A stretch of DNA of 64,000 bases from an uncultured Nitrospinota bacterium (GTDB lineage: Bacteria > Nitrospinota > Nitrospinia > Nitrospinales > JAJDAT01), in assembly GCA_964570665.1 (NCBI GenBank), contig CAZMZH010000002.1:301642-365641 (forward strand). The letters are read 5' to 3'. The notes beneath the pieces were generated by a model. That model worked only from the letters and a program-made list of their open reading frames with translations. It was not told where the DNA came from and searched no databases. The position numbers were made by a program, and so were the translations under genes. Below are positions 34,651-59,179 of this stretch, piece after piece; within the stretch, counting starts at the first letter, position 1; every line of letters begins with the position of its first letter.

Positions 34651-35640
34651 ATGAAACCAACTTCAATAAAAAAAAATGGTTTGAGGATTTTTATTGGAGT
34701 TTTAGCGGCCTGTCAGATATACGCAACGGCATTTGCTTCGGAAGGGGAGGAAAGATGTCAAGTAACCTCTAAGTTGCAAAGTAATATAAAGGCTTGTTCT
34801 AAATTAGTTTCTTTACCTTCCGTTGATAAACTGTATGTTCTATACGGTAAAAACTCTATCGCTACAGACAGATCATCCTCTAATATTTTGATCAAAGCTT
34901 GGGAAGAAAGGGAGTGTGACAACTCTGACAAGGGTAAAGATAAAGATGTCGAAAATAATCGAATAGATTGTAATACCGATTTTCATGTTTCTATGAAAAA
35001 AATAAGCGGGGGCGATCAATGCGGTTTTATTATCGATAATCCAAAAAAGCAATCCGATCAATTAAAAATTGTTATAAAGCGAAAAAGTCGTTCCAAAATT
35101 GACAATTGCGAAATGCAAATGATTATTCGAGCTCCGGCGTTTACACAATTAATTAGAAATGTGTATAACAAGGCTGAAGCGCAAATTGTCGGGATGAAGG
35201 CATTAATTGGAGCGACTTCTACTTCGGGAGATATTCATGCGGAAGTTACTTCTCCCCAAGTAAACTTGACTTCTAAAACTGGGAGTCTATGGGCATACGG
35301 GTTGACTAAGCGAGGCAAAATAATGACGCGGGGAGGAGATGTTGCCGTCCAATATTGTAAAACTCCTGAAAATCAAACGGGAGAGCTTCAATTGTTAACG
35401 TTAACTTCGAAAGATGGAAGCGTGCCCGCCGGTTATGTGAGTTTATTTTTACCTCAAGAAATGGAATATTGGATGCATAAGTCTCTCAAAAAACAATTAA
35501 AGAAAGCGAACCACCTCAAAACACAAGTTCCCGAGTGTGGATATGCGAATTGTAAGTCTTTTAAAATGCGAGGAGACGTTCGAAATTATATGTATGTTTC
35601 AGCGCTTCCTCAAAAAGCCGCTAATGTTTGTCGATTTTGA
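34651..35640 (+). CDS. Secreted paralogue P3 (divergent, lacks the long Asp-Lys tract)
   Basis: Signal peptide ...ATAFA|SEG. Shares KISGGDQCGF, DNCEMQMIIRAP, NKAEAQIVGM, SGDIHAEVTS, TGSLWAYGL and a C-terminal Cys pair. Only a short DKGKDKD at a different position. Starts 19 nt after the P2 stop. Confidence 0.75.
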   Translation: MKPTSIKKNGLRIFIGVLAACQIYATAFASEGEERCQVTSKLQSNIKACSKLVSLPSVDKLYVLYGKNSIATDRSSSNILIKAWEERECDNSDKGKDKDVENNRIDCNTDFHVSMKKISGGDQCGFIIDNPKKQSDQLKIVIKRKSRSKIDNCEMQMIIRAPAFTQLIRNVYNKAEAQIVGMKALIGATSTSGDIHAEVTSPQVNLTSKTGSLWAYGLTKRGKIMTRGGDVAVQYCKTPENQTGELQLLTLTSKDGSVPAGYVSLFLPQEMEYWMHKSLKKQLKKANHLKTQVPECGYANCKSFKMRGDVRNYMYVSALPQKAANVCRF

Positions 35641-43814: not shown

Positions 43815-46800
43815 ATGAAAATCATCCGAATATTTACAAAAAATCTTAAAGATCCTTTTGAAGCCTTTAATTTTGTGGAGCGAACTTCAAAAATTACAAA
43901 TACGGATGGTTCCACCGTTTCCGAAATGAAGGAGGTCATTGCCCCAGATTTTTGGTCTCAAGTCGCAGTGGATATCATGGCCCAAAAATATTTTCGAAAA
44001 GCTGGAATTCCTTCTTGTTTAAAAAGAAAAGTTGAAGAAGGAGCTCCCGAGTGGCTTTGCCCATCAGTCCCTGATTTTGCGGCGCTAAATCAATTGCCGA
44101 AAGTTAGTCAATATGGTGGAGAAACCGACGCTCGGCAGGTTTTTAGGCGGTTGGCGGGTTGTTGGACTTATTGGGGATGGAAAAATAACTATTTTGAAGA
44201 CGAAGAATCCGCTCAGATTTATTTTGATGAAATGTGTTTTCAATTAGCTGGACAATTGGCGGCTCCAAATTCACCTCAATGGTTTAATACAGGTTTAAAT
44301 TGGGCTTATGGGATAGAAGGTCCGGCTCAAGGTCACTATTATTATGACTCAGATGAATCAAAAGTCGTGCAATCTCAGTCCGCATATGAAAGACCTCAGC
44401 CTCATGCTTGTTTTATTTTGTCAATTGAAGACAACTTGGTTAATGAGGGCGGGATAATGGATTTATGGCGCCAAGAAGCCCGATTATTTAAATACGGTTC
44501 GGGTAGCGGTACAAATTTTTCTAGTCTTCGCGGAGAAGGAGAGCCTCTTTCGGGTGGTGGAAAATCTTCTGGATTGATGAGTTTTTTGAAAATTGGCGAT
44601 CGAGCGGCTGGAGCTATAAAGTCCGGTGGAACTACGCGAAGAGCGGCAAAAATGGTGACCTTAGATATTGATCATCCCGATATTGAAGAGTTTATTGAGT
44701 GGAAAGTAAAAGAAGAACGAAAGGTAGCGGCGCTTGTTTCTGGTAGTAAAATAACTAGAAAAAGACTGAAACAGGTTATTAAGGCTTGTTGGGCAGAAAA
44801 AGACGAATCTTTACGTTTTGATTTGGCGAAGAACCGGGAATTACGCAAGGCTGTTAAACAAGGTTTAGAAGACTGCATTCCTGAAAACTATATTTATAGA
44901 GTGATCCAGTTAGCTAAGCAGGGAGTACAAGATATTGAATTTGAGGAATACGATGTTAATTGGAATTCAGAGGCTTATGCTACTGTTTCAGGTCAAAATT
45001 CCAACAATTCAATTCGGCTCACAAATGAGTTTTTAAGAGCTGAGGAGTGTGGTGGCGATTGGAACTTGTTAAATCGGGTTGATGGAAAAATTAACAAGAC
45101 CGTTTCTGCGGATAGTTTGTGGGAGAAAATAAATGAATCGGCTTGGTCAAGCGCCGATCCCGGATTGCAGTTTGATACCACAATTAACGAATGGCACACC
45201 TGTCCAGAAGGCGGTAGAATTCGCGCTTCCAATCCATGTTCTGAGTATATGTTTCTTGATAATACGGCCTGTAATTTAGCCTCGATAAATTTGATTAAGT
45301 TTTTCGATGCGAAGAGCGGCAGGTTTGCTATTCACAATTTTAGACATGCTTGTAGGCTTTGGACTTTGACTTTGGAAATTTCAGTTGCGATGGCTCAATT
45401 TCCAAATAAAGCGATTGCTGAAAAAAGCTTTGACTACAGAACTTTGGGTTTGGGGTACGCCAACCTTGGAGCTTTGTTGATGGTTTCTGGTATCCCCTAT
45501 GACTCGGAAGAAGCTAAGTCTATTGCTGGGTCTATAACCGCTTTATTGACAGGCGCTTCTTATTCTATGTCAGCCGACATGGCTAAAGAATTAGGGGCTT
45601 TTTCTCAATATGAATCGAATAAAACTCATATGTTAAGAGTTATGCGGAATCATCGAAGGGCTGCGCAAAATGCTCCAGAGCAAGAATATGAAGGTCTTAC
45701 CGTTTTCCCAAGAGGAATTCGGTCCGAGTTTTGCCAAGATAATCTTTTGAGGGCGGCGAAAAAAGAATGGGATGATGTTTTGGAAAAAGGCGTAAAGTTT
45801 GGTTTTCGGAACGCCCAAGTGACTTGTATTGCTCCAACGGGAACGATTGGTTTGTTAATGGATTGCGATACCACGGGTATTGAGCCAGATTACGCTTTAG
45901 TAAAATTCAAAAAGCTAGCTGGTGGAGGATATTTTAAAATTATTAATCAGTCTGTACCCGCAGCCCTAGGACGCCTCGGTTATAGTGAAGAAGAAGCCGA
46001 AGAAATTGTAAAATATTGTGTCGGGTCGGGAAGTTTAAAAGACTCTCCATTTATTAACAGGGAATCGTTAAAGGAAAAAGGGTTTAGCGATAAGGTTTTA
46101 GAAAAAATTGAGGCAGAGCTGCCAAAAGTATTCGATATTGGGTTTGCGTTTAACAAATTCACGTTGGGCGAAGAGTTTTGTAAATCTACTTTTGGTATTA
46201 CCGAGGCGCAATTAGAATCTCCAATGTTTAATTTTTTAGAATTTATCGGTTTTTCGTCCGATGAGATTTCTAAAGCTAACGACGCAATTTGTGGAACTAT
46301 GACGATTGAGGGTTCGCCTCACCTTAAGGAAGAGCATTACCCTGTATTTGATTGCGCCAATAAATGCGGTAAATATGGAAAGCGTTTTATACCTCATGAA
46401 GCGCATATTCGGATGATGGCAGCCGCCCAGCCTTTTATTTCTGGAGCGATTTCTAAGACCATAAATATGCCGTCTGAATCCTCCATTTACGATGTTAAGA
46501 AAGCGCATATTCTATCTTGGAAGCTTATGCTTAAAGGGACTGCTATTTACCGAGATGGGTCCAAATTAAGCCAACCTCTTAATAGTGTAGCCGATTTAGA
46601 CTTTAGAATGATTGAAACTGAAAGTGAAGATCGGAAGGAAGCGAAATCTCCAGCTCTTGCCGCTGCGGAAAGAATTGTTCATCAAATGGGATACCGCAAA
46701 AAGCTTCCATATAGACGCAAGGGTTATACTCAAAAAGCTATGATTGGAGGACATAAGGTTTACCTCCGTACGGGCGATTATGAGGACGGAAGCTTGGGTG

Positions 46801-47414
46801 AGATTTTTATTGATATGCATAAGGAAGGCGCCGCTTTCCGGAGCTTAATGAATTGCTTTGCTATTTCTATTTCTTTGGGTCTTCAACATGGAGTTCCCTT
46901 GGAAGAGTTTGTTGACGCCTTTGTTTTCACCCGTTTTGAGCCTAATGGGATTGTTTCTGGTAGTAAGAATATAAGTATGTCGACATCTATTATTGATTAT
47001 ATTTTTAGAGACCTAGCGATTTCATATTTAGATCGAAATGATTTGTCTCAAGTTACCCCCGAAGATTTACGCGCAGATGCCATTCAGAAAGATTCTGAAT
47101 TTAGCTCCGATGTTACTTCCAGCATTAAACCTCCTCAAGAATCAAACGTTGTTTTGGAAAAAACAGAGGTGGTTTCCGAGGTTCCAAAAGCCGCAACTAA
47201 AACAAATGGAAATGGGAACGGAAATGGAGCGGTAGCGGAAAAACATGCGGAGGTTACGGTTGGATTGGCTCAACCTAAAGTTTCCGCTTTTGAAATAGCT
47301 AGAATGAAAGGATATGAAGGCGACCCTTGCAATGAATGCGGGCAGATGACCCTTATACGCAATGGTACCTGTTTAAAATGCCTGTCATGTGGCGCAACGT
47401 CCGGTTGTTCCTAA
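43815..47414 (+). CDS. nrdJ: Class II (adenosylcobalamin-dependent) ribonucleotide reductase, long form
   Basis: Active-site block [23 protein letters not shown]. Also [33 protein letters not shown] and [10 protein letters not shown]-terminal Cys cluster [22 protein letters not shown]. Confidence 0.93.
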
Positions 47415-47559
47415 AGATTCATTTTTTTAAGTAGATTACTTTAATATCTCCCCTCCCCCCCCTCTGGGGCAGTTTTGCATCTGATTTTTTTCTTATAAAA
47501 AAAGTTTAAAAATTTTTCTTCAAATTTAAATTGTTAAGGTTAACTAATCCCACAAAACC

Positions 47560-47588
47560 TTGACACTATTGAGCTAAAATAATATACT
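47560..47588 (+). promoter_or_regulatory. Strong sigma-70 promoter at the left edge of accessory block 2
   Basis: TTGACA (47560-47565), 17 nt, TATACT (47583-47588), 82 nt upstream of the TTG start at 47671. Confidence 0.6.
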
Positions 47589-47670
47589 TCAAAATTCACA
47601 TCCTTAGACCTGAAAGAATTTTTCAATTTATTACCTAGCGTTAACCTGGGTATTTGGAGGAGCTAATCCA

Positions 47671-48294
47671 TTGAGCGAAAAAGAAAATAATCCGGCAGAG
47701 CAAGGCACCCAAGCGGAAGACGATGAAGAATCCCTCAGGGGAGATTCGTCTAAAGAAGGCGGACTGGCCGACCTTAGCGAGTTGGAAAAGATAAAAAAAG
47801 AACTAGAACTTGAAAAAGTAAAAGCTGCGCAAGAACTTGAAGTGGGCGAGGAAGAGGAAGGCGAAGACGCTAGAGAGGCGGATTATCTTCAAAAGCTAAT
47901 TAATTTGACAATTAAGTTTGATCATCATTTAGGAATGTTCTTGATGCCTTCTTACATTGACTGCGGCTTAAAATACGATCATCGTTTAGTTGAAAGTTAT
48001 ACGACGCAGTTGGTTACTATTCAAAGTTTTCTAAGGCTATTGGAAAAAGTTGATGGAGTAACGCGCGAGCAGGTTACTAAAGAATGTGTTATCAAATTGA
48101 GAAACGTTCTCCAGCAAGTTAATAAAAATATGGTGAAGCCGCTTTTCAAAGAAGTAAAGCTTATGAAGAAGAAGCCTAAAATGGAAAACCTAGATACATT
48201 TAAAGAAAACTGGAACGATAGATTGCTCGAATTTCAAAAAGTTTGTGATTTTGAATACCAGATTTTAGACGTAAAAGGTTTTCAGATAAAATAA
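47671..48294 (+). CDS. Hypothetical protein with a ~70-aa acidic disordered N-terminus
   Basis: TTG start, 207 aa. N-terminus rich in E/D (AEDDEES...EVGEEEEGEDAREAD), helical C-terminal ~130 aa. No motif recognised. Confidence 0.6.
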   Translation: MSEKENNPAEQGTQAEDDEESLRGDSSKEGGLADLSELEKIKKELELEKVKAAQELEVGEEEEGEDAREADYLQKLINLTIKFDHHLGMFLMPSYIDCGLKYDHRLVESYTTQLVTIQSFLRLLEKVDGVTREQVTKECVIKLRNVLQQVNKNMVKPLFKEVKLMKKKPKMENLDTFKENWNDRLLEFQKVCDFEYQILDVKGFQIK

Positions 48295-48532
48295 CTTTAT
48301 ATTTGTTTATTTAATTCGAAACTGCTTGGGGGATGGTTGTTTCGTGAGAAGTCGATTTGATTATTTTGCGAAAATAAGTTTGCCGTGGGTATAGTCGTTT
48401 TTATAAATTCGATTATTTTCTAATTACCTCCAAGAGTTTCTCCCTCCTGGGCGGAGTTTTTAAATCATCCTCGCTCCCTTACGTTAAAAAAATTTCCCAT
48501 TAACCTTATTTAAGAATTTTTGCCTAAGAAAA

Positions 48533-49525
48533 ATGGAAGAAGAAAAAAACGAAAATGAAGAGTTAGAAGTGGGGCAGGAACTGACGGTGGTAGAGGAAAC
48601 TTTACCTGAAGAAAAACCGGTTGTCGATCATTCTAAATTATATGTTTGGATTGCCGATGCCGGTAATAATCGTATACAAAAGTTTGATGGGAATGGGAAG
48701 TTCTTGATGCAGTTTGGTCGGCCTGCCGGCACGCGGGCTCCCTATAACCCAGGCGAATTCAAAACTCCAATGGGAGTTGCTGTCGATTCCTATGGGAACA
48801 TTTGGGTGGCCGATACAGGGTGTCATCGAATACAGAAATTCGACGAAGAGGGCGGCTTTCTTTTGGAGTTTGGCACGGAAGGTTGGGGACCCGATAAGTT
48901 CTATATGCCAGAAGGTATAGCGGTGGAGGCGTCGGGAACTATACTTGTTGCCGATACGGCAAACCATTGCTTTAAGCGTTTTGACGATGATGGAGAGTTT
49001 CTATTGGGCTTTGGTTTCTCGGGTGATTTTGACGGTTTTTTAAAATACCCAACCGGAGTAGCTCTAGACCGCGAAGGTAACATTTATGTGGCAGATAGAG
49101 ATAACCAGCGAATTCAAATTTTTAATGAAGACGGTCAATACGTTTCAAAGTTTGGTCAATATGGTTTTGAGGAAGGATTTGTTAATTTCCCTAATGGTAT
49201 TGTGGTGCGGAAAGATGGAACGATAGTTGTTTCTGAAAAAAGCCAAAACCGTTGCCAAGTTTTTGATAACGAAGGAAATTTTATTTCAAGTTTTGGCGAA
49301 TTAGGCAAACGCGAAGGGCAATTTAATTGTCCAATGTGTTTGGCCCAGGATCCATATGGTTATATCTTTGTAGTAGATACGCTTAATAATCGAATCCAGA
49401 AATTTGATAAAGAGTTTAACTTTGTTGGGAAATGGGGTTCCATTGGAAAAGAATTGGGCCAGTTAAAGGATCCTGCTGGAATTTGCCTTACATGGGAACC
49501 CGATTGGGCTCCAAAAGACGAATAG
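48533..49525 (+). CDS. NHL-repeat beta-propeller protein (six blades), no signal peptide
   Basis: Six repeats of the form GVAVDSYGNIWVADTGCHRIQKFDEEG / GVALDREGNIYVADRDNQRIQIFNEDG. Acidic ~30-aa N-terminus. Confidence 0.85.
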   Translation: MEEEKNENEELEVGQELTVVEETLPEEKPVVDHSKLYVWIADAGNNRIQKFDGNGKFLMQFGRPAGTRAPYNPGEFKTPMGVAVDSYGNIWVADTGCHRIQKFDEEGGFLLEFGTEGWGPDKFYMPEGIAVEASGTILVADTANHCFKRFDDDGEFLLGFGFSGDFDGFLKYPTGVALDREGNIYVADRDNQRIQIFNEDGQYVSKFGQYGFEEGFVNFPNGIVVRKDGTIVVSEKSQNRCQVFDNEGNFISSFGELGKREGQFNCPMCLAQDPYGYIFVVDTLNNRIQKFDKEFNFVGKWGSIGKELGQLKDPAGICLTWEPDWAPKDE

Positions 49526-49575
49526 TTTAACCAAAACTATTTGTAACTAATATTTAGAATAAGGAAAAATATTTT

Positions 49576-50199
49576 TTGAAAAAAGTTTGGCAAAATTTTG
49601 AGCTTCAATCCCCGGCAAAATGTGGATTTTTTTTAATCCTAATTATGGTTTTTCTGAGTTCCACCGTTTTTGGGGATGAAGGGTATTATTATGGCCATAA
49701 AGTTGAGGTTGAACCGCTCAAGCCAAAGTTGGGACCCGACGGCCTTCCATTGCCTGAAAGATTTGCCGATAATGGCGATGGAACAATTACCGATCAGAAA
49801 GAAAATCTTATGTGGAAAGCTCGTGATTCTTACCAAGAAAGAAAAAAATGGTTGAATTGGCACGACGCGCAAATATTCATAAAAGAGATGAATGAAAAAA
49901 AGTTTGCTGGGCATGATGATTGGCGATTACCCATAAAGAAAGAGCTTAAATCCCTTTATGAAGAAGAGAAGGAAATTCCTTGGAAATATTATTGGACGGA
50001 AAATGTTGTGCATATAGATCCAATTTTTGGAGATACTAGTTGTTGCTTTTGGACTAGCGAGGAATATAAAGAGAAATACGCATATGGGTTTAATTTTATT
50101 AGAGGGCAGTCATACTTAAGTCTTAAAGGCGGTATAATGCAATCCTTAACGGTGATACGGCCAGTTAGAACTATAACGGCTAAACTGGACTCAAAATGA
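49576..50199 (+). CDS. DUF1566/Lcl-C-like domain protein with N-terminal signal/anchor
   Basis: TTG start. Hydrophobic N-terminus (CGFFLILIMVFLSSTVFG). Domain blocks FADNGDGTITD, NLMWKARD, WLNWHDAQ, FAGHDDWRLPIKKEL, CFWTS, VIRPVR. Confidence 0.75.
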   Translation: MKKVWQNFELQSPAKCGFFLILIMVFLSSTVFGDEGYYYGHKVEVEPLKPKLGPDGLPLPERFADNGDGTITDQKENLMWKARDSYQERKKWLNWHDAQIFIKEMNEKKFAGHDDWRLPIKKELKSLYEEEKEIPWKYYWTENVVHIDPIFGDTSCCFWTSEEYKEKYAYGFNFIRGQSYLSLKGGIMQSLTVIRPVRTITAKLDSK

Positions 50200-50984
50200 G
50201 CGATCAAAATAATTTAGAAGACCAAGCGACGGAGGACGAGAGCCTTGAGCTTGAAGATAGTGAAGCCCTAGAAGAGGAAGAGCCGGATTTACAGGAAGAA
50301 CTTGACGACGATGAAGTGGAGTTTGACCTGGAAGCTCAGATTGAGTTATTTAGAAGCCAGATTGAAGAAGAACCTGAAAACTGCATCCACCACTATAATT
50401 TGGGCGAAGCTCTAGAGGAGCTAAGGCATTATGACGAAGCCTTAGAGGAATTTCAGCTGGCTTTGAAGTATGACGAAGATAATTCCTTTGGAGGAGTGAT
50501 TCATTTTGGATTAGGTAATTTATATTACAATAAACTTTTAGGTGGAGCTTCTTCAGACGTTATCAAAAGTTCTATTGGATTGTTAAATGAGCATAAAGAA
50601 AAAGATTCAATTACGGATGTTCTGGCTGAAGATTATCAAAACCCAATTAATGAATTTGAGCAGGCATTAAAATATTTGCCGATGCTGAAAGCAGACGATG
50701 ATTTAGCGGAATACATTTCAGAAAATGCCCCGTTATCGATAGCAAATATTTATTATAAATGGGCATCTGATTTAGTTGATAAGTCGAGACAGCTTACTAA
50801 CTATGGCGATGAAATAAACGATATTAAAAGAGCTTTGAAGCACTTAAAAAAAGTTTTAGAAATTGACCCTAATAATTCTCCTGCCGCCCTATTAGAAAAA
50901 TTGGGAAAAAAAATGTTAGCGGAAGGATGGATGATCTATGATGAGTACGGTTTTGAAGCTAAAAATATTCAAGGCATAGGTTAA
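50196..50984 (+). CDS. Acidic-N-terminus + TPR-like helical repeat protein
   Basis: ATGA overlap with the upstream gene. The first ~60 aa are almost all D/E. TPR-like units follow (HHYNLGEALEELRHYDEALEEFQLALKYDEDN; ALKHLKKVLEIDPNN). Confidence 0.6.
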   Translation: MSDQNNLEDQATEDESLELEDSEALEEEEPDLQEELDDDEVEFDLEAQIELFRSQIEEEPENCIHHYNLGEALEELRHYDEALEEFQLALKYDEDNSFGGVIHFGLGNLYYNKLLGGASSDVIKSSIGLLNEHKEKDSITDVLAEDYQNPINEFEQALKYLPMLKADDDLAEYISENAPLSIANIYYKWASDLVDKSRQLTNYGDEINDIKRALKHLKKVLEIDPNNSPAALLEKLGKKMLAEGWMIYDEYGFEAKNIQGIG

Positions 50985-51023
50985 TCGTTTAAAAGTATAA
51001 AAGAGTTAAAAAGGAATTTTTTT

Positions 51024-51419
51024 ATGGCTGACATTTTAGAGCTAATCGGCGAACGATTGAGTAAAGACGGTCAAGTCTTGAATCTCAAGGCCCAGTTTAT
51101 TCGAGAAGTAGGCGCGAGGAAGTTAGCGGAATGCGAAGAGCTTTCAAATTTAAGGGCGTTAGATTTAACTCAAAACGCTATTGGCGACGATGGAGCCAAA
51201 GCCATTGCGGAATCGCCTCATTTATCTAAAGTTAGAACTCTGAATTTAAAATCAAATGGAATCACTGATATTGGCGCGGAATACCTGGCAAACTCTACAA
51301 CTTTGAAAAGTTTAAAAAGTTTGCAATTGGTAGTCAATGATATTTCGGAAAAGGGCGAAAAACTGCTGATTAACTCTAAAAGCTTAACAAGTTTGACTTC
51401 CTTAAAATTCCGAGTTTGA
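51024..51419 (+). CDS. RNI-type leucine-rich repeat protein (131 aa)
   Basis: ~28-residue LRRs: LRALDLTQNAIGDDGAKAIAESPHLSKVRTLNLKSNGITDIGAEYLANSTTLKSLKSLQL. Confidence 0.8.
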   Translation: MADILELIGERLSKDGQVLNLKAQFIREVGARKLAECEELSNLRALDLTQNAIGDDGAKAIAESPHLSKVRTLNLKSNGITDIGAEYLANSTTLKSLKSLQLVVNDISEKGEKLLINSKSLTSLTSLKFRV

Positions 51420-51514
51420 GTATTTTTTTTTAAAAAAAATTATTAGAATTAATGGTTTATAAGTAATTGTTTTTATTAAGCTTGTGGGGTGCGCTGAAAA
51501 TAGAAAAATAGCGC

Positions 51515-51543
51515 TTGACTTATTTTGCCCGTTTTGATACTTT
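51515..51543 (+). promoter_or_regulatory. Candidate sigma-70 promoter of the small secreted protein gene
   Basis: TTGACT-N17-TACTTT. The -10 element is weak. Confidence 0.3.
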
Positions 51544-51673
51544 CGGTCCACAATCAAAGCCCAAAGACCCGGGCATAAAAAAACGAATATTAGGGTTCTT
51601 AGCCAATTTGAATATTTGTTAGGGATTATTTTGGAGTTAGTTTAACTTTTCAATTTTTTGAAAGGGGGAGACC

Positions 51674-52165
51674 ATGATGAGAAGGACGACTACCGTGGTT
51701 ATCACGGCCTTGGCGTTTTTTGCGCTTACCTCAATTGCTGCCGCTAATGTTTCAACTTTAAAGGCTGGCCAATCGAGTGTGTGTGAAGACGCTTCTTGGA
51801 TTATCTACAATGTAAGTGAAACCGATTCAACTAATGTCCAGTTTGATATTGGTCCTCATGCTTACGGTTGGGGTAAATGGTATAAAAGAGACTTGCCACC
51901 TGGTGGGTATCAAACCAACGCTATTGCCGTTAAAACAGATTTTAAGAATAATGGCCCAGGAGTAGTTCAAGTTAACTGCCAACGTCAGCGTTTTGACCGC
52001 CATGACTGGAAAATTGATGCTGGTTCTGGTAAAACCTACCAAAGTGATTATCATATGGACCATGTTCAACCTGGTACATATATTGAGCCTGGTTTAGGGT
52101 TGCCTGAGGGTACGGAAAGAGGAATTTTCTCTAACCAAAACCAAAAGCCTGAGTATCAAAGATAA
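51674..52165 (+). CDS. Small secreted protein (163 aa), unknown family
   Basis: Strong SD (AAGGGGGAG, 4 nt before the ATG). Signal peptide MMRRTTTVVITALAFFALTSIAAA|N. Two Cys. Followed by a canonical intrinsic terminator. Confidence 0.75.
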   Translation: MMRRTTTVVITALAFFALTSIAAANVSTLKAGQSSVCEDASWIIYNVSETDSTNVQFDIGPHAYGWGKWYKRDLPPGGYQTNAIAVKTDFKNNGPGVVQVNCQRQRFDRHDWKIDAGSGKTYQSDYHMDHVQPGTYIEPGLGLPEGTERGIFSNQNQKPEYQR

Positions 52166-52185
52166 GCCGAATTTAGTTCTATTAA

Positions 52186-52220
52186 AGCCGGAGGGGTTTT
52201 CCCCCTCCGGCTTTTTTTTT
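52186..52220 (+). terminator. Rho-independent terminator
   Basis: AGCCGGAGGGG-tttt(c)-CCCCTCCGGCT (11-bp GC-rich stem) followed by a T9 run, 21 nt after the stop. Confidence 0.88.
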
Positions 52221-52884
52221 GGCTTAAAAAATGGAAAGTCCTGAAATTTACAGTAAGGCTTTCTCTAAACTGTTTTAGTTGTGCTATCAGTGGAAATAAA
52301 AAAAACTAGATCGTTTCAGGTTAGGAAGATGGTATGTCAAAAGAAAAGGAACATGAAACTTTTAAGCTTTGGAAGTTGTAGAAGAATAGAGGATCCTCTA
52401 TGTTTAAAAATTTAATCTAATAATCGTTTTATAGTTTTTTGTGATTTTTTTAGCTTTTACCGCTATTTAATGGATATTAAAGAGAGTTTTTTTAATATTG
52501 GTTTTTGAAATTTATTTTATAAAAGGCTAATTTTTTTTAAGATTGACCAATTTTGAATTTGTATTTGATTTTGTTTTCAGAGAAAAATAACATTATATTA
52601 AATACGAGAGGTTTAGTTATATAAATTATTAGCGAGCATTGTTTGCATCGAAACAGTAGGTTTTTGAAAGGTTTTTGCCTTGAAAATTGCTTTTGCTAAT
52701 GTTACTTTATCTATATTCGATTTTAATTTTGATTGAATCTTTCTAGGGGAACACTCTGATATTGGCATTAGTTTGTCTTGGGAAGTTTGGCTCTTTTGAC
52801 TGAGAGTCGAAATGTTCTTTTTTCCGGGAAAACCGTCGATAGGGGTGTTTTTTTTTATTTTAAGCTAATTGTTTGGTTTTAATT

Positions 52885-53322
52885 ATGACTCAAGATTCAA
52901 GCTTTAAAGATAATAAAGATGGTACTGTTACCGACCTTGAAGAAGATCTTTGTTGGTGTAAAAAAGATTCAAGGGCAGAGCTTGAAAAGTGGCTCAATTG
53001 GGATGAAGCTATAGAGTATATGCGCGTATGTAACGAGCAAAAATACTTGGGTTTTGTGGATTGGCGTATGCCGACTAAAAGTGAATTACGCTCTCTGCTA
53101 AAAAATAAGAAAGATTATCGTCAAATTTTTCTAAATGAACCCCCTAAAGCTGAACGTAAAGTGTCCGATTATAAATCGGGGGGAGAACAAAGTCTTTGGA
53201 GTTCCGAGACAAGATATGGTTCATATGCATGGAAATCATACTTTCCTTCTGGTAAAGAAGTATGTGTCGATCAAAGCGTTGCGACAACAGGCACTTCAGT
53301 TCGCTTAGTTCGAGATCTTTAA
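52885..53322 (+). CDS. DUF1566/Lcl-C-like domain protein, leaderless
   Basis: FKDNKDGTVTD, DLCWCKKD, WLNWDEA, LGFVDWRMPTKSEL, LWSSE, VRLVRDL. The ATG at 52885 is preferred over the TTG at 52873. Confidence 0.72.
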   Translation: MTQDSSFKDNKDGTVTDLEEDLCWCKKDSRAELEKWLNWDEAIEYMRVCNEQKYLGFVDWRMPTKSELRSLLKNKKDYRQIFLNEPPKAERKVSDYKSGGEQSLWSSETRYGSYAWKSYFPSGKEVCVDQSVATTGTSVRLVRDL

Positions 53323-53387
53323 TATAAACTTGATATTTTTTAAGAAGTTTAATAATAGCGCTATTTTTATAATCAATAGGTGACCTT

Positions 53388-54023
53388 ATGGTTGATGAAA
53401 ATTTAACAGATCAAGGCGAAGATGAGCTTCATAAAGTCGACCAAACTCTGGATGATTCCGCGGAAAGCGAAGATTATGTAGTTGACGAGTGGGAAGGAGA
53501 CGAAGATTGGGGCGAAGAGAGTGAGGATGAAGAGTCTCCAATAGAAACTGACGCCCCAATTTATGTTGACAATGAAAATGGAACTATAAGCGATTCTCGT
53601 CATTTTATTATGTGGGCAAAAGCAGATTCATTTAAAGAATTTAATTACGGTATCAATTGGTATGAAGCTCATGATTACTGTGAAGCTTTAAACGAGAAAA
53701 AATTTGCGGGTTTTGACGATTGGAGATTACCAGGGTTTGACGAGGCTGTTACCTTGTTTTCTTTTGAAAAATCAAACTACGATAAAGACGATGCTGAGAT
53801 TCATATTGATCCAATTTTTGAGTCAAATGGCGGTCATAATACTTGGACATACGACGAAAAACCGGATTACCACCAGTATGCTATGAAGTTTAGTTATATT
53901 ACTGGAAATGAAATGTGGGAAAATAAAGATAATGAATATTCCCACGTCAGAGCTGTTCGGGACGAGCAAAAAGAGGATTGGGAACCTGAATGGAGAAAAG
54001 ATTCTAAGAAATATGGCGGATAG
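53388..54023 (+). CDS. DUF1566/Lcl-C-like domain protein with a ~55-aa acidic N-terminus
   Basis: YVDNENGTISD, FIMWAKAD, INWYEA, FAGFDDWRLPGFDEA, HIDPIF, TWTY, VRAVRDE. N-terminus DEWEGDEDWGEESEDEES. Confidence 0.72.
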   Translation: MVDENLTDQGEDELHKVDQTLDDSAESEDYVVDEWEGDEDWGEESEDEESPIETDAPIYVDNENGTISDSRHFIMWAKADSFKEFNYGINWYEAHDYCEALNEKKFAGFDDWRLPGFDEAVTLFSFEKSNYDKDDAEIHIDPIFESNGGHNTWTYDEKPDYHQYAMKFSYITGNEMWENKDNEYSHVRAVRDEQKEDWEPEWRKDSKKYGG

Positions 54024-54102
54024 TTTCATGTTAATTGAAATTATTAAGCGATAAGCTTTATTAATTTTTCAAATTAAAAAAGATTTTTTCGGAATATAGA
54101 GT

Positions 54103-54321
54103 ATGAGTAATTACATGATTTTTGGGAAAAGAGATTGCCCGCATACTCAGAAGGCGCTGGCTGATTATAAAAAAGAGTTAAAATCTTTTATGTTTATAGA
54201 TGTCGATAATAACCCACGGGGTTTAGAACAATTATTGGAATATTCTAATGGGAAATATATTGTGCCAGTGATTGTGAATGTTGACGAAGGAAACGTGGAG
54301 ATTGGCTACACAGGGGATTGA
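54103..54321 (+). CDS. Glutaredoxin/NrdH-like thioredoxin-fold protein with CPHT in place of CxxC
   Basis: 72 aa. MIFGKRDCPHTQKA (active-site position), a cis-Pro region YIVPVIV and a terminal GY, the usual Grx-like layout. The second Cys is replaced by Thr. Confidence 0.55.
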   Translation: MSNYMIFGKRDCPHTQKALADYKKELKSFMFIDVDNNPRGLEQLLEYSNGKYIVPVIVNVDEGNVEIGYTGD

Positions 54322-54426
54322 TTCCGATTTGAATTATATTTTTTGCGAATAGTAGAAGATTATGAAAAAACTTTTTGACATTATATCTGAGGTTTTTTTA
54401 GACTTTAAAGTGGAGGGTGAGTTTGG

Positions 54427-54930
54427 ATGAGCGATTTGCCAGAAGTAAAAAAAACCGACGAACAAATTGAAAAGGTTGAAGACGAGGGTCCTAAACGATT
54501 TGTCCCAAAAGGACCGTTCGTGATTTACGATACAGAAACGGGGATTTCATGGCTCAAAAAAGATTCCTGGCAAGATAAAGGAAAGTTTTTTAATTGGCAT
54601 GAATCTAGAGATTACGCGGATACAAAATGTATTCGAAAGATTGGTAAATTTGAGGATTGGAGATTGCCTTTAGCCGATGAAGCGCAAACTTTATTTGTTA
54701 AAGACAAAGAAATTGTTGGCAAAGGAGGAGTGAGTCTCCACTTAGATCCCGCTTTCCCTGAAGGGGCATTTAAGACTTGTTGGGTTGCTGGCGATACTTC
54801 GACTAAAAGACCTCGCTTTGATTATTCCGATGGGAAGCTATTAACAGCCGAAGAATATAGTTTTGGAAGCGTTCGATTATGTCGGAAAGATGCTGTTGGT
54901 AAAGCGCGCCGTTCCTTAAAGCGTGGATAG
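54427..54930 (+). CDS. Divergent DUF1566/Lcl-C-like domain protein, leaderless
   Basis: ISWLKKDSW, FNWHES, GKFEDWRLPLADEA, HLDPAF, CWVAG, VRLCRKD. The N-terminal DNGDGT block is degenerate. Confidence 0.62.
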   Translation: MSDLPEVKKTDEQIEKVEDEGPKRFVPKGPFVIYDTETGISWLKKDSWQDKGKFFNWHESRDYADTKCIRKIGKFEDWRLPLADEAQTLFVKDKEIVGKGGVSLHLDPAFPEGAFKTCWVAGDTSTKRPRFDYSDGKLLTAEEYSFGSVRLCRKDAVGKARRSLKRG

Positions 54931-54944
54931 TAAAAAATTAAAGA

Positions 54945-55403
54945 TTGCATTCAATGACAAGTTCCAACGATTCTAATTCGCAACGATTTATTGATTGCGA
55001 CGAAAATACTATTTTTGATGTTAAGACCCGATTAATGTGGTTTAAAAAAGATACTTGGCAGCTAAGCGGCAAGTGGTTGAGTTGGGTACAATGTCGAGAG
55101 TTCTCCGAAGAGCAAAACAAAAATAAGGTTTCAGGTTTTTCTAACTGGAGGATTCCCACAACTCAGGAAGCAAAGAGTATTTACGAAAAAAGCCAATCAA
55201 ATAAGGATCATATGGGGCAGATTGCCTGGTTGAATAATGCATTCGCTCCTGGTTTTGGTTTTTTGTGTTGGACAAGCGATGTTAGAAATAAGATTCAAGC
55301 GGTTAGGTTTAGCTATAGAAAAGGCGGAACTATGTACGACGATGTTTATAGAACGTCTCGAGGCTCTACTCGTTTAGTGAGGAATTTACAAAAAGACGAA
55401 TGA
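54945..55403 (+). CDS. DUF1566/Lcl-C-like domain protein, leaderless
   Basis: FIDCDENTIFD, LMWFKKD, WLSWVQC, VSGFSNWRIPTTQEA, CWTSD, TRLVRNL. TTG at 54945 or ATG at 54954. Confidence 0.7.
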   Translation: MHSMTSSNDSNSQRFIDCDENTIFDVKTRLMWFKKDTWQLSGKWLSWVQCREFSEEQNKNKVSGFSNWRIPTTQEAKSIYEKSQSNKDHMGQIAWLNNAFAPGFGFLCWTSDVRNKIQAVRFSYRKGGTMYDDVYRTSRGSTRLVRNLQKDE

Positions 55404-55416
55404 AAAAGAGGATAGT

Positions 55417-56325
55417 TTGGAAATAAAACAGAAAAATAGATTTGTCGATAATGGAGACGGTACGGTAACAGATATTGAATCGTCTTTGATATGGACTAAA
55501 GGGGATTCCTGGTTAGACCTGGAAAGATACATCACTTGGGCAGAAGCTCAAGAATATGTTCAAAAAAAGAATGATGAGAAATTGTCTGGCTATTCAGACT
55601 GGCGTGTTCCTAACGCTAAAGAAGCTAAAACCCTTTATGTTTATGAGTCGATAAATACGGACAAAGATGGGTGTGAAGTTCATATCGATAAATCGTTTTC
55701 TTCAGGCTGTGGATACACTACTTGGACTAGCGAAACGCGCGCGGCGAAACAAGCAATGGGCTTTGATTTTCGCGATGACTATGAATATTGGTTGGATAAA
55801 GATCACGATTCTTCATCAAGTAATGTGCGATTAGTACGAAGCGCTGGCGCTGAAAACTCGATGTTAATTTCCGTTGACGATGGTCAAGGGGGTGTCGAAG
55901 AAATTAGTCGTTTTGTGGATAATCGAGACGGCACCATTAGCGATCTGCAAACTAACCTTATGTGGGTAAAGCTTGACTCGCTTTTAGAGCTAGATAAATG
56001 GGTTAGCTGGGATGAAGCAAAAGTTTATGTTAAAGAATTATGCAGAAATAAATTTGCTAAATTTACTGATTGGCGGATGCCAACCAAAAAAGAGGCCTTG
56101 AGTATATATTGTCCTGGTCATGCAAACACCGATGTTTATGGAGATACAGTTTATTTACCGAAGCTGTTCCCCGCAGGTTGTGGCGTCACTACTTGGACAA
56201 GAACGTTAAATAAAAACGATGAACATTTGGCTATGCGGGTATTTTACTATAATGGCGATTTTAAATGGTACAAACGAGGGCTCCGAAGTCACGGGGTAAG
56301 ACCTGTTCGTCTTATAAAAGGATAA
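55417..56325 (+). CDS. Tandem double DUF1566/Lcl-C-like domain protein, leaderless
   Basis: TTG start with a GAGGA SD. Domain a: FVDNGDGTVTD...LSGYSDWRVPNAKEA...TWTSE...VRLVRS. Domain b: FVDNRDGTISD...FAKFTDWRMPTKKEA...TWTR...VRPVRLI. Confidence 0.78.
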   Translation: MEIKQKNRFVDNGDGTVTDIESSLIWTKGDSWLDLERYITWAEAQEYVQKKNDEKLSGYSDWRVPNAKEAKTLYVYESINTDKDGCEVHIDKSFSSGCGYTTWTSETRAAKQAMGFDFRDDYEYWLDKDHDSSSSNVRLVRSAGAENSMLISVDDGQGGVEEISRFVDNRDGTISDLQTNLMWVKLDSLLELDKWVSWDEAKVYVKELCRNKFAKFTDWRMPTKKEALSIYCPGHANTDVYGDTVYLPKLFPAGCGVTTWTRTLNKNDEHLAMRVFYYNGDFKWYKRGLRSHGVRPVRLIKG

Positions 56326-56338
56326 ATTTTTTAGAATT

Positions 56339-56761
56339 ATGGAAAAAAGGTTCACAGATAACGGAGATGGTACAGTTACGGATCACGAAATGAAGTTGAT
56401 GTGGAAGCAAACTGACGGTTTTCAGGACGATGGGGAGTTTATGAATTGGTATGATTCGCAGAAATATTTGAGAAATTTAAATATTGATAACTTTGCGGAC
56501 TTTAACGATTGGAGGCTCCCAACTTTAGAAGAAGCTCAAAGTCTTTACGATCCTGATAGGCGAATTCGCGATATGGATAGGTTCGAAATTTATATCGATT
56601 CTAGTTTTTCTCCAGGAGGTTCATATACGCTATGGACTAGCGATGAAAGGCCTTTTGAAAACGCAGTCGTTTTCTATTATAGATATGGATATGAGGACCT
56701 TGCTCAGAAATTTGGCGCTTATAATAAATGTAGCGTTCGCGCCGTTCGTTTAGTTGAATAA
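56339..56761 (+). CDS. DUF1566/Lcl-C-like domain protein, leaderless
   Basis: FTDNGDGTVTD, LMWKQTD, MNWYDS, FADFNDWRLPTLEEA, LWTSDE, VRAVRLV. Confidence 0.75.
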   Translation: MEKRFTDNGDGTVTDHEMKLMWKQTDGFQDDGEFMNWYDSQKYLRNLNIDNFADFNDWRLPTLEEAQSLYDPDRRIRDMDRFEIYIDSSFSPGGSYTLWTSDERPFENAVVFYYRYGYEDLAQKFGAYNKCSVRAVRLVE

Positions 56762-56902
56762 TGGTGATTTTTTAAAAGATCTATCAATTTTTAAAAAAGG
56801 AAATAAACCATCGAATCTTATCGCTTAATAAATCCGCAGGAGAGTCAGAATTCGGTTCTCACTTATAGGTTTGAAGAAGAGGATTTTGAAAATCTCTATG
56901 TT

Positions 56903-57550
56903 TTGGAAGACTATTATCACACTAATCCATTTTGCGATTATCAAAACGCATTAATTTCATTTAGGGATAGTGAAAAACCAGATAATCGAATTTCTTTTTT
57001 ACTTGGATTCAAAAAGACATATACGCTTCCTCCGAATCAGCCTACATTGACCAATGTTCAAACAGAAATTGTAAAACGTTTTGTAAAAGAGATTCCAGAA
57101 GAACTAATGGTTTTATTTAAACAACGTTATTTTGAGGCAAAAGCTTACGGTGAGAAAAACCCTATGTCCTATTTAGAATTTGAATCTGGACGATTTTTCA
57201 CTTTTGTTGAACTTTTTCCAAAAGCCAATAAACCGATTGAGTTTTCGTTAGATAGCGCTCAATACTTAATTGAAGACTCTTATGATATTGATCCTAATAA
57301 TAAAAATCGAACTGTTAAGCTGGCGTTTTTTAAGCTGGATTTAGAAGAAGAAAACAAACCGCCTATCTTTAATTATGCTTATTATTTTAATGAAGACCTA
57401 AGAGTGGCGGAAGATAAAAAAATTCCGGATGATCACAGCGCTTTAGTTGTTGCGTTGAATGCCTCTATTCCAAACTTACGAAATATGTTGAAAGATCGTT
57501 ACCGGGAAGCAAAAAGTCTTGGCGAAGAATTATTGCGAAAAAGCGCTTAA
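56903..57550 (+). CDS. Hypothetical protein (215+ aa); true start uncertain
   Basis: The ORF track starts at TTG 56903. The frame is open back to 56807 and reads like protein (TYRFEEEDFENLYV), with no ATG/GTG/TTG in that stretch. Confidence 0.55.
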   Translation: MEDYYHTNPFCDYQNALISFRDSEKPDNRISFLLGFKKTYTLPPNQPTLTNVQTEIVKRFVKEIPEELMVLFKQRYFEAKAYGEKNPMSYLEFESGRFFTFVELFPKANKPIEFSLDSAQYLIEDSYDIDPNNKNRTVKLAFFKLDLEEENKPPIFNYAYYFNEDLRVAEDKKIPDDHSALVVALNASIPNLRNMLKDRYREAKSLGEELLRKSA

Positions 57551-57652
57551 AAAATAGTTTTAAAAATTTTAGTAATATTTTTTCATAAACTTAATTGGTT
57601 ATTTCTTTTATGAAAAATCGATTTAGACAATTTAATCTTTACGAGAAATGTT

Positions 57653-58213
57653 ATGTCATCAAAGACTAGAAAAGTTAAAAAAGTTCAGGCGAGACACATT
57701 TTAGTTTCCAGTAAGGAATTGGCTCTTGATCTTAAGAAAAAATACGAAGATGGCGAAGACTTTGCCGAGTTAGCTCAACAAAATAGCGAATGCCCTTCAA
57801 AAAAGCGAGGAGGCGATTTAGGTTGGTTTGGAAAGGGAGCTATGGTACGGCCTTTTGAAGTGGCTGCGTTTTCCGCAGAAGAAGGCTCGGTTACCGATCC
57901 GGTTAAAACTGAATTTGGTTGGCATTTGATTTATGTTTATGAAGTTAAAGAAGATGCAGATCCTGATGCAGGACCTCCAACTGGCGACGAAGATGCCGAT
58001 GAAAAGACTTTACGCTTGGTAGCTGAAAATTACGCTCATGAGTTTATGATGCTAGGTTATTCTAGTAAAAAAGTTCTCAGTCTTTTTACAAGCCAGCACT
58101 TTAAATCTGCGAATGTTGTTTATAATATTCTTGGTAAAGATATTATTAATGAAATAATTGCCAAGGTTTATGGAGTTAAAATTGAGAAAAAACAGGAAGA
58201 TTCTGGCGAATAG
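57653..58213 (+). CDS. Parvulin-type peptidyl-prolyl isomerase (PpiC-like) with a ~85-aa C-terminal extension
   Basis: ARHILVSS...CPSKKRGGDLGWFGKGAMVRPFE...TEFGWHLIYV. An acidic linker and a helical tail of unknown function follow. Confidence 0.8.
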   Translation: MSSKTRKVKKVQARHILVSSKELALDLKKKYEDGEDFAELAQQNSECPSKKRGGDLGWFGKGAMVRPFEVAAFSAEEGSVTDPVKTEFGWHLIYVYEVKEDADPDAGPPTGDEDADEKTLRLVAENYAHEFMMLGYSSKKVLSLFTSQHFKSANVVYNILGKDIINEIIAKVYGVKIEKKQEDSGE

Positions 58214-58406
58214 TTAATTTCAAATTAATCGTTATTTTCTTTTGTTTTTTTAATACTTTTCATCGTTTCTTCCCCCTTTCAATTGCCCACCAAGTTTCTT
58301 ACCTTTTTTATTTTTCATAATTCAAAAAATAGCATTGAACCTAAAAATACGGAACAAACTCCTGTGCGTATTTTCTAGAATTAAAATCTTTAGATTTTAG
58401 AAAAAA

Positions 58407-58796
58407 TTAAGAAGAAATTAAGTCGAGTCTTCGTAAGGTTGGGGAACCGAAGGGCGGAAGGTTTAAAATACGTCCATTTTTTATAGTTTTTAGGGCAAAG
58501 GCGACCATTGCCTCATAATCTTTCATTCTTTCCCTAAAAAACTGAATTGAATCCAAACAAATCTTTTTTGTTTTTTTTATTTTTTGAACAGTTTGCTGGT
58601 GGAGTTTAATTAGTTGAATCTCTTTTTCTTTTAATAGATGTAGGTTATTTCCTAAGGTCTTCCTTTTTTGTTTTATAAAGCTTCTAAAAGTTCTCAATGG
58701 ATCAAGGTTTGAAGCAATGGAAGATTTCTCGGGCACCGCTTCATCTATCCTTTGTGAATTTAAAAGCTTATCGACTTCATTTTGATCAAGATCCAT
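58407..58796 (-). CDS. Hypothetical coiled-coil protein (129 aa)
   Basis: Isolated ORF with no recognisable motif. A 14-bp perfect inverted repeat lies 31 nt upstream of its ATG. Confidence 0.4.
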   Translation of the reverse strand: MDLDQNEVDKLLNSQRIDEAVPEKSSIASNLDPLRTFRSFIKQKRKTLGNNLHLLKEKEIQLIKLHQQTVQKIKKTKKICLDSIQFFRERMKDYEAMVAFALKTIKNGRILNLPPFGSPTLRRLDLISS

Positions 58797-58826
58797 TTTT
58801 TCTCTAAAATCAAAAATTTTTACAAT

Positions 58827-58860
58827 CGTTCAATCGGACCAATTTAGGTCCGATTGAACG
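58827..58860. repeat. Perfect 14-bp inverted repeat (hairpin or operator)
   Basis: CGTTCAATCGGACC-aattta-GGTCCGATTGAACG. Confidence 0.9.
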
Positions 58861-59179
58861 TTAGGGTCGACGAGGGGGGTTGCCAACCCTTCATGCAAAA
58901 AATTAAAAAAATATGAAATTTCACAGGTAAGTTACTTAGTTTAAGTTCTTGGGTAATCATTAGTTTTTGTAAACTATCTATTGGTAAGCATTTTCTGTTC
59001 CAAAACTTTCAACGGTTTTTTTGTTTTTTAAGTCCTATTAATTCAATGGATTTTGGTTTTTGTTCTTGAGGGACCAGAAAAAGTAGTGAAGTTTTTGGAA
59101 TTGATAAGACGGGATGTCTCAAAATGAAACTTTCGGGGCACTTTGAGACAAGAGGAGGAGGAAGTTTTTAAAAGGTTAT

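Follow-up and report, generated by a model that had tools for sequence, protein, structure and literature searches.

A conserved block of leaderless Lcl_C (DUF1566) paralogues in the Nitrospinota

Why would a bacterium make a row of related lectin-fold proteins, nearly all of them lacking a signal for export? The question is raised by a 64,000-nucleotide stretch of DNA from an uncultured Nitrospinota bacterium (contig CAZMZH010000002.1; the whole stretch is called the window below). Between positions 49576 and 56761, seven open reading frames (ORFs) on one strand encode proteins of the Pfam family Lcl_C (PF07603, formerly DUF1566), and only the first of them begins with a hydrophobic N-terminal segment. 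A first-pass annotation made from the sequence letters had singled out these ORFs as an isolated array. The array is real, but it is no oddity of this window. We found that it is part of a larger syntenic block (47671-58213), which extends past the array on both sides, comprises 15-16 genes on a single strand, and recurs across the phylum. We number the array genes O1 to O7 in their order along the forward strand, on which all features of the block lie.

All seven ORFs exceeded the PF07603 gathering score of 34.9 bits, and together they hold eight domains, the number that the annotation had assigned to a DUF1566/Lcl-C-like family. The scores were 75.4 bits for O1 (49576..50199), 73.1 for O2 (52885..53322, with the start of the public gene call), 69.0 for O3 (53388..54023), 35.9 for O4 (54427..54930), 56.3 for O5 (54954..55403), 132 for O6 (55417..56325), whose two domains match in two stretches, and 68.8 for O7 (56339..56761). 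O4 is the most divergent copy, with a Lys/Glu-rich N-terminal tail and no DNGDGT block. It lies barely over the cut-off, has clean orthologues, and matches a profile made from the window domains. The eight domains align over about 138 columns. Eleven positions are invariant (D13, W20, D24, W35, W56, R57, P59, E63, W97, R132, and R135) and cover the W...DWR.P...E core and the terminal R..R. The ordered motif blocks from which the annotation had recognized the family were found among these columns.

A profile alignment of the array domains to the C-terminal domain of the Legionella pneumophila protein Lcl (Lcl-CTD; PDB ID: 8q4e) passes through W..A...DWRLPT..E. The residue roles described for Lcl-CTD include an Arg-Glu salt bridge (PMC11162425), and W35, W56, R57, P59, and E63 are kept in the array. 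We also compared structures, as the annotation had proposed. The AlphaFold model of O7 (pLDDT 95.6, pTM 0.89) has Lcl-CTD as its top Foldseek match in the PDB (8q4e_A; probability 1.00, TM 0.55/0.58, rmsd 4.0 angstroms, 24% identity, E = 1.6e-3). The second-best PDB match is the C-terminal domain of Bdellovibrio Bd2740 (8oks), phage DUF1566 proteins are the top viral structural matches, and further matches at the level of the fold are FGE, EgtB, SenA, PvdO, CarF, and PorK. The same 8q4e chain is the top match of the two-domain model of O6 (pLDDT 85.6, pTM 0.79). This pTM is above expectation for two freely hinged domains, which suggests that the two halves pack against each other in a defined way. 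In the first domain of O6, residues 109-122 (55741-55782) form one of the best-conserved segments across the phylum (column entropy of about 0.5 bits) and are modeled with pLDDT <50. They may be a partner-dependent or swapped element.

The sole exported paralogue is O1, in which a Sec-type signal peptide (hydrophobic segment at residues 10-28) is followed by one domain (PF07603 at residues 69-197). A signal-like N-terminus was present in 24 of 32 O1 orthologue ORFs under a strict heuristic. No transmembrane or signal segments were predicted in O2-O7. The domain starts 5-11 residues past the start codon in O2, O5, O6, and O7, in agreement with the earlier description of the remaining ORFs as starting directly at the domain or at a tail. 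The ORFs were taken at maximal length, so that upstream in-frame starts were already included and a leader cannot be gained from any of them. Start-codon correction, by which the annotation thought that conventional signal peptides might be recovered, restored none in O2-O7 and was ruled out because the maximal ORFs have no room. Across the O2-O7 orthologue groups, one of 292 maximal ORFs had a signal-like N-terminus, and that one is an artefact of upstream extension. The absence of an export signal from six ORFs, first noted in the window, thus holds among their orthologues. We infer that the six leaderless Lcl_C proteins (seven domains) most likely stay in the cytoplasm, because they are made without any export signal.

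We mapped gene order from the Lcl_C domains and the best matches in all fetched loci. A genome scan with the two-domain protein O6 gave 25 loci, 23 of them labeled Nitrospinota, Nitrospinales, Nitrospinaceae, or Nitrospina. The two exceptions are labeled 'uncultured bacterium' and Nitrospirae. Among the homologues that databases list under a name are those of Nitrospina gracilis, N. watsonii, Ca. Nitronauta, Ca. Nitrohelix, and Ca. Nitromaritima. The query of the metagenome scan was a five-sequence alignment; an alignment of the eight paralogues was too divergent. The same one-strand order was found in at least 20 genome loci and at least 40 metagenome loci, and also in a groundwater CG11-type Nitrospinae genome and the genome of cultured N. 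gracilis. Outside the window clade it reads unk207, NHL, O1, TPR, LRR, sec163, O0, O2, O3, glutaredoxin-like, O4, O6, O5, O7, unk215, and parvulin, where unk207, sec163, and unk215 are proteins of unknown family. O0 is an extra leaderless Lcl_C gene of 164 aa between sec163 and O2 in other Nitrospinota. The window clade differs by the absence of O0 and by an exchange of O5 and O6. Apart from this one swap, the order is kept in about 50 Nitrospinota genomes and contigs. The flanks beyond unk207 and parvulin vary: a ribonucleotide reductase lies upstream in the window, whereas N. gracilis and CG11 have a radical-SAM gene on the upstream side and serA on the downstream side. We therefore treat 47671-58213 as a discrete unit. 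The block is probably also present in N. watsonii, where an O6 orthologue was found. We interpret it as a phylum-wide core-genome signature of the Nitrospinota that is vertically inherited and includes a lineage-specific expansion of Lcl_C.

Orthology between loci is one to one. Identity is 53-94% inside the orthologue groups (60-94% for O2, 57-90% for O4) but 29-46% to the next paralogue. The paralogues thus fall into separate orthologue groups, and the duplications should be older than the split of the sampled Nitrospinota lineages. Every Lcl_C gene has a dN/dS of 0.03-0.09 against relatives at 79-94% identity (0.04-0.06 for O2), and the neighboring parvulin and glutaredoxin-like genes have values of 0.01-0.03. 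Between the copies, nucleotide repeats in 47000-59000 are limited to motif stretches of 20-43 nt with 61-90% identity. The copies had been called old on first inspection, with low nucleotide identity and a DWRMPTK motif common to O2 and the second half of O6; the motif is indeed in both, and the short repeats and orthologue-group identities agree with great age. On these comparisons, we consider the paralogues ancient, non-redundant, and individually constrained.

The arrangement of the genes suggests that several are made together. O5 and O6 are separated by 13 nt, as are O6 and O7, and these spacers and that between O4 and O5 carry Shine-Dalgarno-like sequences. The operon-like packing of 54427-56761 that the annotation had described is supported by these features, and its spacer lengths of 13-14 nt are confirmed, with one dependence on the choice of start codon. 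The O4-O5 spacer is 14 nt if O5 starts at TTG 54945 and 23 nt if it starts at ATG 54954, and the ATG is favored by the orthologues and by public gene calls. A GGAGG precedes the start of O4. Further upstream, a consensus scan found a promoter-like site, TTGACA-18-TAGACT (54375..54404; 10/12 matches), which is weak evidence because the whole region is not enriched in such sites relative to shuffled sequence.

The net charge of the domains is specific to each paralogue and conserved in about 50 genomes: about -15 for O3, -8 for O7, -6 for the first domain of O6 (O6a), about +6 for O5, +4 for the second domain of O6 (O6b), and about +1 for O4. Among 49 orthologues, the values range from -17 to -12 for O3 and from +3 to +10 for O5. 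O6 thus joins an acidic half to a basic half in one chain. Long acidic N-terminal tails are present on four proteins of the block, namely unk207, NHL, TPR, and O3. The tail of O3 has 57 residues and contains an aromatic motif, EW.G...WG.EE, that is kept in more than 20 genomes and that we count as a candidate partner motif.

The closest structural relative offers a precedent for assembly, as Lcl-CTD is trimeric and the study that describes it proposes that DUF1566 may aid oligomerization and/or carbohydrate recognition (PMC11162425). Taken together with the charge pattern, the acidic tails, and the gene spacing, this precedent would fit co-produced subunits with an affinity for one another or for something in common. 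Our preferred interpretation, held tentatively and at a little under an even chance, is that the Lcl_C paralogues serve as binding subunits of fixed specificity and act jointly, with a hetero-oligomer as the most plausible form. The acidic domains O3, O6a, and O7 would pair with the basic domains O5 and O6b, and the O4-O5-O6-O7 operon and the O2-O3-glutaredoxin unit would supply matched amounts of the subunits. These would cooperate with the leaderless NHL, TPR, and LRR proteins inherited alongside them and, within the cell, would bind one another or a shared fixed ligand. The folding or targeting helpers encoded at the 3' end of the block, that is parvulin and, in most lineages, the SEC-C-motif protein, might also take part. 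A more specific version, in which seven to nine Lcl_C paralogues and their acidic-tailed partners (NHL, TPR, and unknown proteins) form a cytoplasmic, Nitrospinota-specific hetero-oligomeric scaffold or structure around a fixed internal ligand, is conceivable, but we regard it as doubtful.

Several observations weigh against joint action of the paralogues as cytoplasmic subunits. The case for a hetero-oligomer is indirect, as it draws on charge complementarity, the O6 fusion, gene spacing, and one pTM value from a predicted model. The window clade is without O0 and has O5 and O6 swapped, changes that a rigid complex might tolerate less well. All characterized DUF1566 proteins (the Lcl adhesin, leptospiral lipoproteins, and phage fiber tips) are extracellular. 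In addition, further leaderless single-domain Lcl_C genes (128-159 aa) occur at other Nitrospinota loci (L057:2740-3159, L065:4770-5192, L076:5096-5518, L072:6507-6893, L092:782-1261, and L107:7989-8411), so that some leaderless Lcl_C proteins are encoded outside the block.

In line with the extracellular location of every characterized relative, the leaderless paralogues might leave the cell by a non-classical or piggy-back route and serve as lectin- or adhesin-like proteins of the surface or periplasm, an explanation that we regard as unlikely. The block does encode two exported proteins, O1 and sec163, and the gene that follows O7 codes, in most Nitrospinota, for a protein with a C-terminal SecA-type SEC-C motif, which in SecA binds SecB and ribosomes (bioRxiv 10.1101/613315). 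However, a signal-like N-terminus is absent from the roughly 290 orthologue ORFs of O2-O7, save for the one artefact, and several of the proteins are too short at the N-terminus to hold one. The SEC-C motif is missing from the window clade, whose Lcl_C genes are nevertheless all kept under equal constraint. Sec export requires a signal, and we know of no case in which long polyacidic tails act as export signals. The sole candidate carrier, sec163, itself has a Sec-type signal, and a strong terminator lies between its gene and O2. Hitch-hiking on sec163 through the Tat pathway was rejected because its RR pair is not conserved. If the proteins do remain inside, they could instead be independent intracellular sensors or receptors for different ligands that feed into signaling or defense, as stand-alone counterparts of the cytoplasmic C-type-lectin sensor domains carried by kinase, TIR, and STAND proteins. 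Leaderless fusions of Lcl_C to Pkinase, TIR, and T5orf172 without transmembrane segments exist elsewhere, cytoplasmic lectin-fold 'antigen sensors' have been described (PMC10907252), and repeats of the NHL, TPR, and LRR types, which are clustered with the array, are typical of sensors. We give this explanation little probability, as the block contains no effector, NTPase, or kinase domain (its Pfam content besides Lcl_C is NHL, TPR, LRR, glutaredoxin, and rotamase only) and no diversity-generating retroelement (DGR). Strict core-genome synteny, a dN/dS of 0.03-0.09, and the lack of a variable region are also unlike conflict systems. A PADLOC search for defense systems gave only two marginal matches at the level of repeats, and membership of a defense system was rejected. 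An array of immunity genes, as tandem leaderless paralogues after a toxin, was likewise dismissed, because it does not fit core, syntenic genes that are under strong purifying selection throughout the phylum.

Two further explanations follow from the fold. FGE/EgtB-like catalytic or metal-handling modules (enzymes or metallochaperones) are suggested by the structural matches that come after Lcl (EgtB, FGE, SenA, PvdO, and CarF), by the glutaredoxin-like redox protein embedded in the array, and by C86, H89, and C98, which are present in most O6 orthologues. These matches, however, have a TM of about 0.5 on the query but 0.2 on the target, with an rmsd of 6-12 angstroms, and PF03781 had no match at E <= 0.1 in the seven ORFs. 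No Cys pair is invariant (C86 in 43 and C98 in 59 of 72 O6 orthologues), and in O7, the other group examined, neither Cys nor His is conserved. FGE-like catalysis was set aside as unlikely for lack of a PF03781 match and of a conserved Cys pair, and we consider modules of this kind, metal-handling ones included, very unlikely. The array could also hold the targets, or the relic, of a DGR, since DUF1566 and C-type-lectin folds are common among DGR variable proteins (PMC5758913, PMC4159848). No reverse transcriptase (RVT) was found in the block or in the 30 larger ORFs scanned with Pfam in the rest of the window (which cover most of its ORFs >=280 aa), in line with the earlier remark that none lies nearby, and 47000-59000 contains no pair of template and variable repeats. 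DGR variable regions lie in the C-terminal part of lectin-fold targets. In O6 and O7, the C-terminal blocks have the lowest column entropy and are not hypervariable. With the low dN/dS of the genes and orthologues that are stable across the phylum, these results refute a DGR at this locus as far as the sequence covered here reaches, and we regard that explanation as extremely improbable.

The block opens with unk207 (47671..48294), which belongs to no Pfam family and whose acidic N-terminal tail precedes a C-terminal domain of unknown fold. Its orthologues (62-93% identity, dN/dS 0.03-0.04) occupy the same position in Nitrospinota loci. The next gene encodes a leaderless NHL-repeat beta-propeller (48533..49525; Pfam NHL, 132 bits) with an acidic N-terminus, a pI of 4.5, no transmembrane or signal segment, and syntenic orthologues of 67-95% identity. 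The 3' end of O1 overlaps by 4 nt the gene for a leaderless TPR protein (50196..50984; Pfam TPR_2/TPR_1; pI 4.15), which has a highly acidic N-terminal tail of about 55 residues and a motif, EEVEFDLEAQIE.FR.QIEE, that is kept across the phylum. It is followed by a leaderless LRR_6 protein of 131 aa (51024..51419; Pfam LRR_6, 54.5 bits), whose orthologues share 65-98% identity and are invariable in position. The exported protein sec163 (51674..52165; 163 aa) has no Pfam match. Its orthologues keep the signal peptide but not the RR pair, a pattern that favors the Sec over the Tat route. An intrinsic-terminator-like hairpin (52184..52214), with a 13-bp stem, nine G-C pairs, and a following T run, is predicted to close the upstream transcription unit and looks like a strong terminator. 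It lies in an AT-rich gap of 719 nt (52166-52884; 29.5% GC) without any ORF >=60 aa. A remnant of O0 was sought in this gap, and no signal was found even with the HMMER filters off, nor was there an Rfam match; an O0 pseudogene was therefore rejected.

Inside the array, between O3 and O4, lies a gene for a glutaredoxin-like, monothiol (CPHT) protein of 72 aa (54103..54321; Pfam Glutaredoxin, 24.7 bits; dN/dS 0.01-0.02). It scores 73.9 bits against the NCBIfam UXX-star family 1 (NF041114; cut-off 72), with profile positions >66 unmatched. The ORF ends in ...GYTGD and closes with TGA, where most orthologues have TAA or TAG. A C-terminal motif of selenocysteine (Sec) or Cys, X, X, and stop was not found, and no stop occurs two codons past the TGA. 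We rejected a selenoprotein because a UXX-stop read-through is lacking and TAA is the usual stop among the orthologues, and we interpret the product as a Sec-less, truncated relative of the UXX-star family. Downstream of O7, unk215 (56903..57550) is conserved and without a Pfam match in the window. In about 40 loci, its orthologues end in the SecA-type SEC-C zinc motif CPCGSGKK[YF]KKCC (for example L110:12003-12698), and PF02810 (SEC-C) matches the N. gracilis orthologue. This extension is absent in the window clade (the window and L003-L005) and in L030. The last gene of the block encodes a parvulin-type peptidyl-prolyl isomerase (57653..58213; Pfam Rotamase_3, 84.9 bits), whose orthologues (73-97% identity) are invariably block-terminal. 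PDB sequence searches with the three unknown proteins of the block gave no match. Among the Lcl_C singletons at other Nitrospinota loci, one family invariably follows genes for a membrane protein of about 770 aa and a protein of about 475 aa of unidentified family. Secreted singletons of about 175 aa were found too.

The window as a whole is a Nitrospinota chromosomal segment of low GC content (about 37%), with flagellar, type IV pilus, guaA/guaB, class II ribonucleotide reductase, and oxaloacetate decarboxylase genes among its Pfam content. Searches for tRNA genes and Rfam families across the window found none. The reductase that adjoins the block upstream in the window clade (43815-47414) is a class II (B12-dependent) enzyme of 1199 aa with a TSCPD domain, and Rfam detected no cobalamin riboswitch for it in the window. 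Away from the block, three consecutive ORFs (31867-33174, 33534-34631, and 34651-35640) have hydrophobic N-terminal segments and no Pfam family, and their products are probably exported. The first two are clearly paralogous, with the Cys-rich motifs CD.G.W.YDW..C..S.DCDS (N-terminal) and YRND.GNCP.C (C-terminal) in common, and the first also contains a long (SP)n linker; the third matches these motifs only loosely. The lowest-GC part of the window (29.5% GC) contains a further ORF without a Pfam match (36084-38318), whose product of 744 aa is predicted to span the membrane seven times.

Nitrospinota are the main nitrite oxidizers of the ocean, and to our knowledge no role has been assigned to most of the conserved genes that are specific to the lineage. 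The block holds the largest set of non-exported DUF1566 proteins found here. It is nearly fixed in order and under selection as strong as that on housekeeping genes. The domain has so far been characterized only outside the cell, in an adhesin, in phage-fiber tips, and in DGR targets. Should these proteins have an intracellular role, they would represent an undescribed, essential-looking piece of Nitrospinota cell biology, and a cytoplasmic assembly would be the first intracellular structural use of the DUF1566 fold. The question is directly testable because the cluster is present in cultured N. gracilis, where NITGR_360077 is the O6 orthologue and its neighbors can be identified by their position in the cluster, and probably in N. 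watsonii.

How far does the block resemble systems already described? The literature search returned no paper on such an array, and of the 34 papers with a mention of DUF1566, the only one that also names Nitrospina is an unrelated survey of beta-barrels. The N. gracilis genome paper does not mention the lectin, NHL, TPR, or LRR genes, and the locus tags around NITGR_360077 were found in no paper searched. The only database names of the array proteins are 'DUF1566 domain-containing', 'Lcl C-terminal domain-containing', and 'hypothetical'. When 1.84 billion representatives were searched with a profile, 30,260 family members were recovered at E <= 1e-3. The top-scoring representatives are giant multi-repeat proteins with signal-like N-termini in 105 of 149. 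These dominate the search. The same domain does occur in leaderless fusions without transmembrane segments, in which Pkinase is joined to three Lcl_C copies, TIR to two, and T5orf172 to three (P0284, P0374, P0375, and P0278). One example is MDM8524879.1 from Desulfococcaceae bacterium HSG8, and leaderless multi-Lcl_C proteins also come from Sulfuricella and Desulfococcaceae. Such fusions may be cytoplasmic sensor-effector proteins, to judge from their domain composition. The view of the first-pass annotation that the array is not a described system is thus right about the array itself but has to be narrowed, because leaderless, cytoplasmic-type Lcl_C proteins exist elsewhere.

The nearest relative is Lcl-CTD, which shares with the array the Pfam family, the best structural match, and the W...DWRLP..E core with its Arg-Glu positions. 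Lcl, however, is a secreted, surface-attached homotrimer with an N-terminal amphipathic helix and a collagen-like stalk, and its Lys-rich face binds sulfated glycosaminoglycans of the host, whereas the array proteins are stand-alone, leaderless, mostly acidic, and encoded as seven or eight distinct paralogues per block. Their translations (140-302 aa) consist of the domain or domains with short or acidic tails, and no collagen-like Gly-X-Y repeats were found in them. Bd2740-C and phage DUF1566 domains, the second-best PDB and best viral matches to the O7 model, are extracellular fiber tips that recognize prey or host. Snaclecs, the heterodimers of snake venom, are small lectin-fold subunits that are encoded by paralogues and pair with one another, and snaclec chains are among the structural matches to the O6 model. 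They are eukaryotic, secreted, and disulfide-linked, the likeness to O6 is at the level of the fold only (4-10% identity, E > 0.05), and a comparable pairing in Nitrospinota is hypothetical.

The DGR variable proteins with a C-type-lectin or DUF1566 fold, among them the cytoplasmic 'antigen sensors' of multicellular bacteria (PMC10907252), use the same fold class as a ligand-binding module, and some are predicted to be cytoplasmic. The array differs from them in having no reverse transcriptase, no template or variable repeats, no hypervariability, and no fused STAND, kinase, or protease domain, and in being conserved phylum-wide. The Lcl_C fusions resemble the array in being leaderless, multi-copy, and free of transmembrane segments, but they combine the domains with an enzymatic or signaling head in a single polypeptide, whereas the array consists of separate genes without an effector domain. 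The domain and the existence of cytoplasmic lectin-fold sensors are thus already known; what is new is a conserved set of stand-alone, non-diversified, leaderless Lcl_C paralogues.

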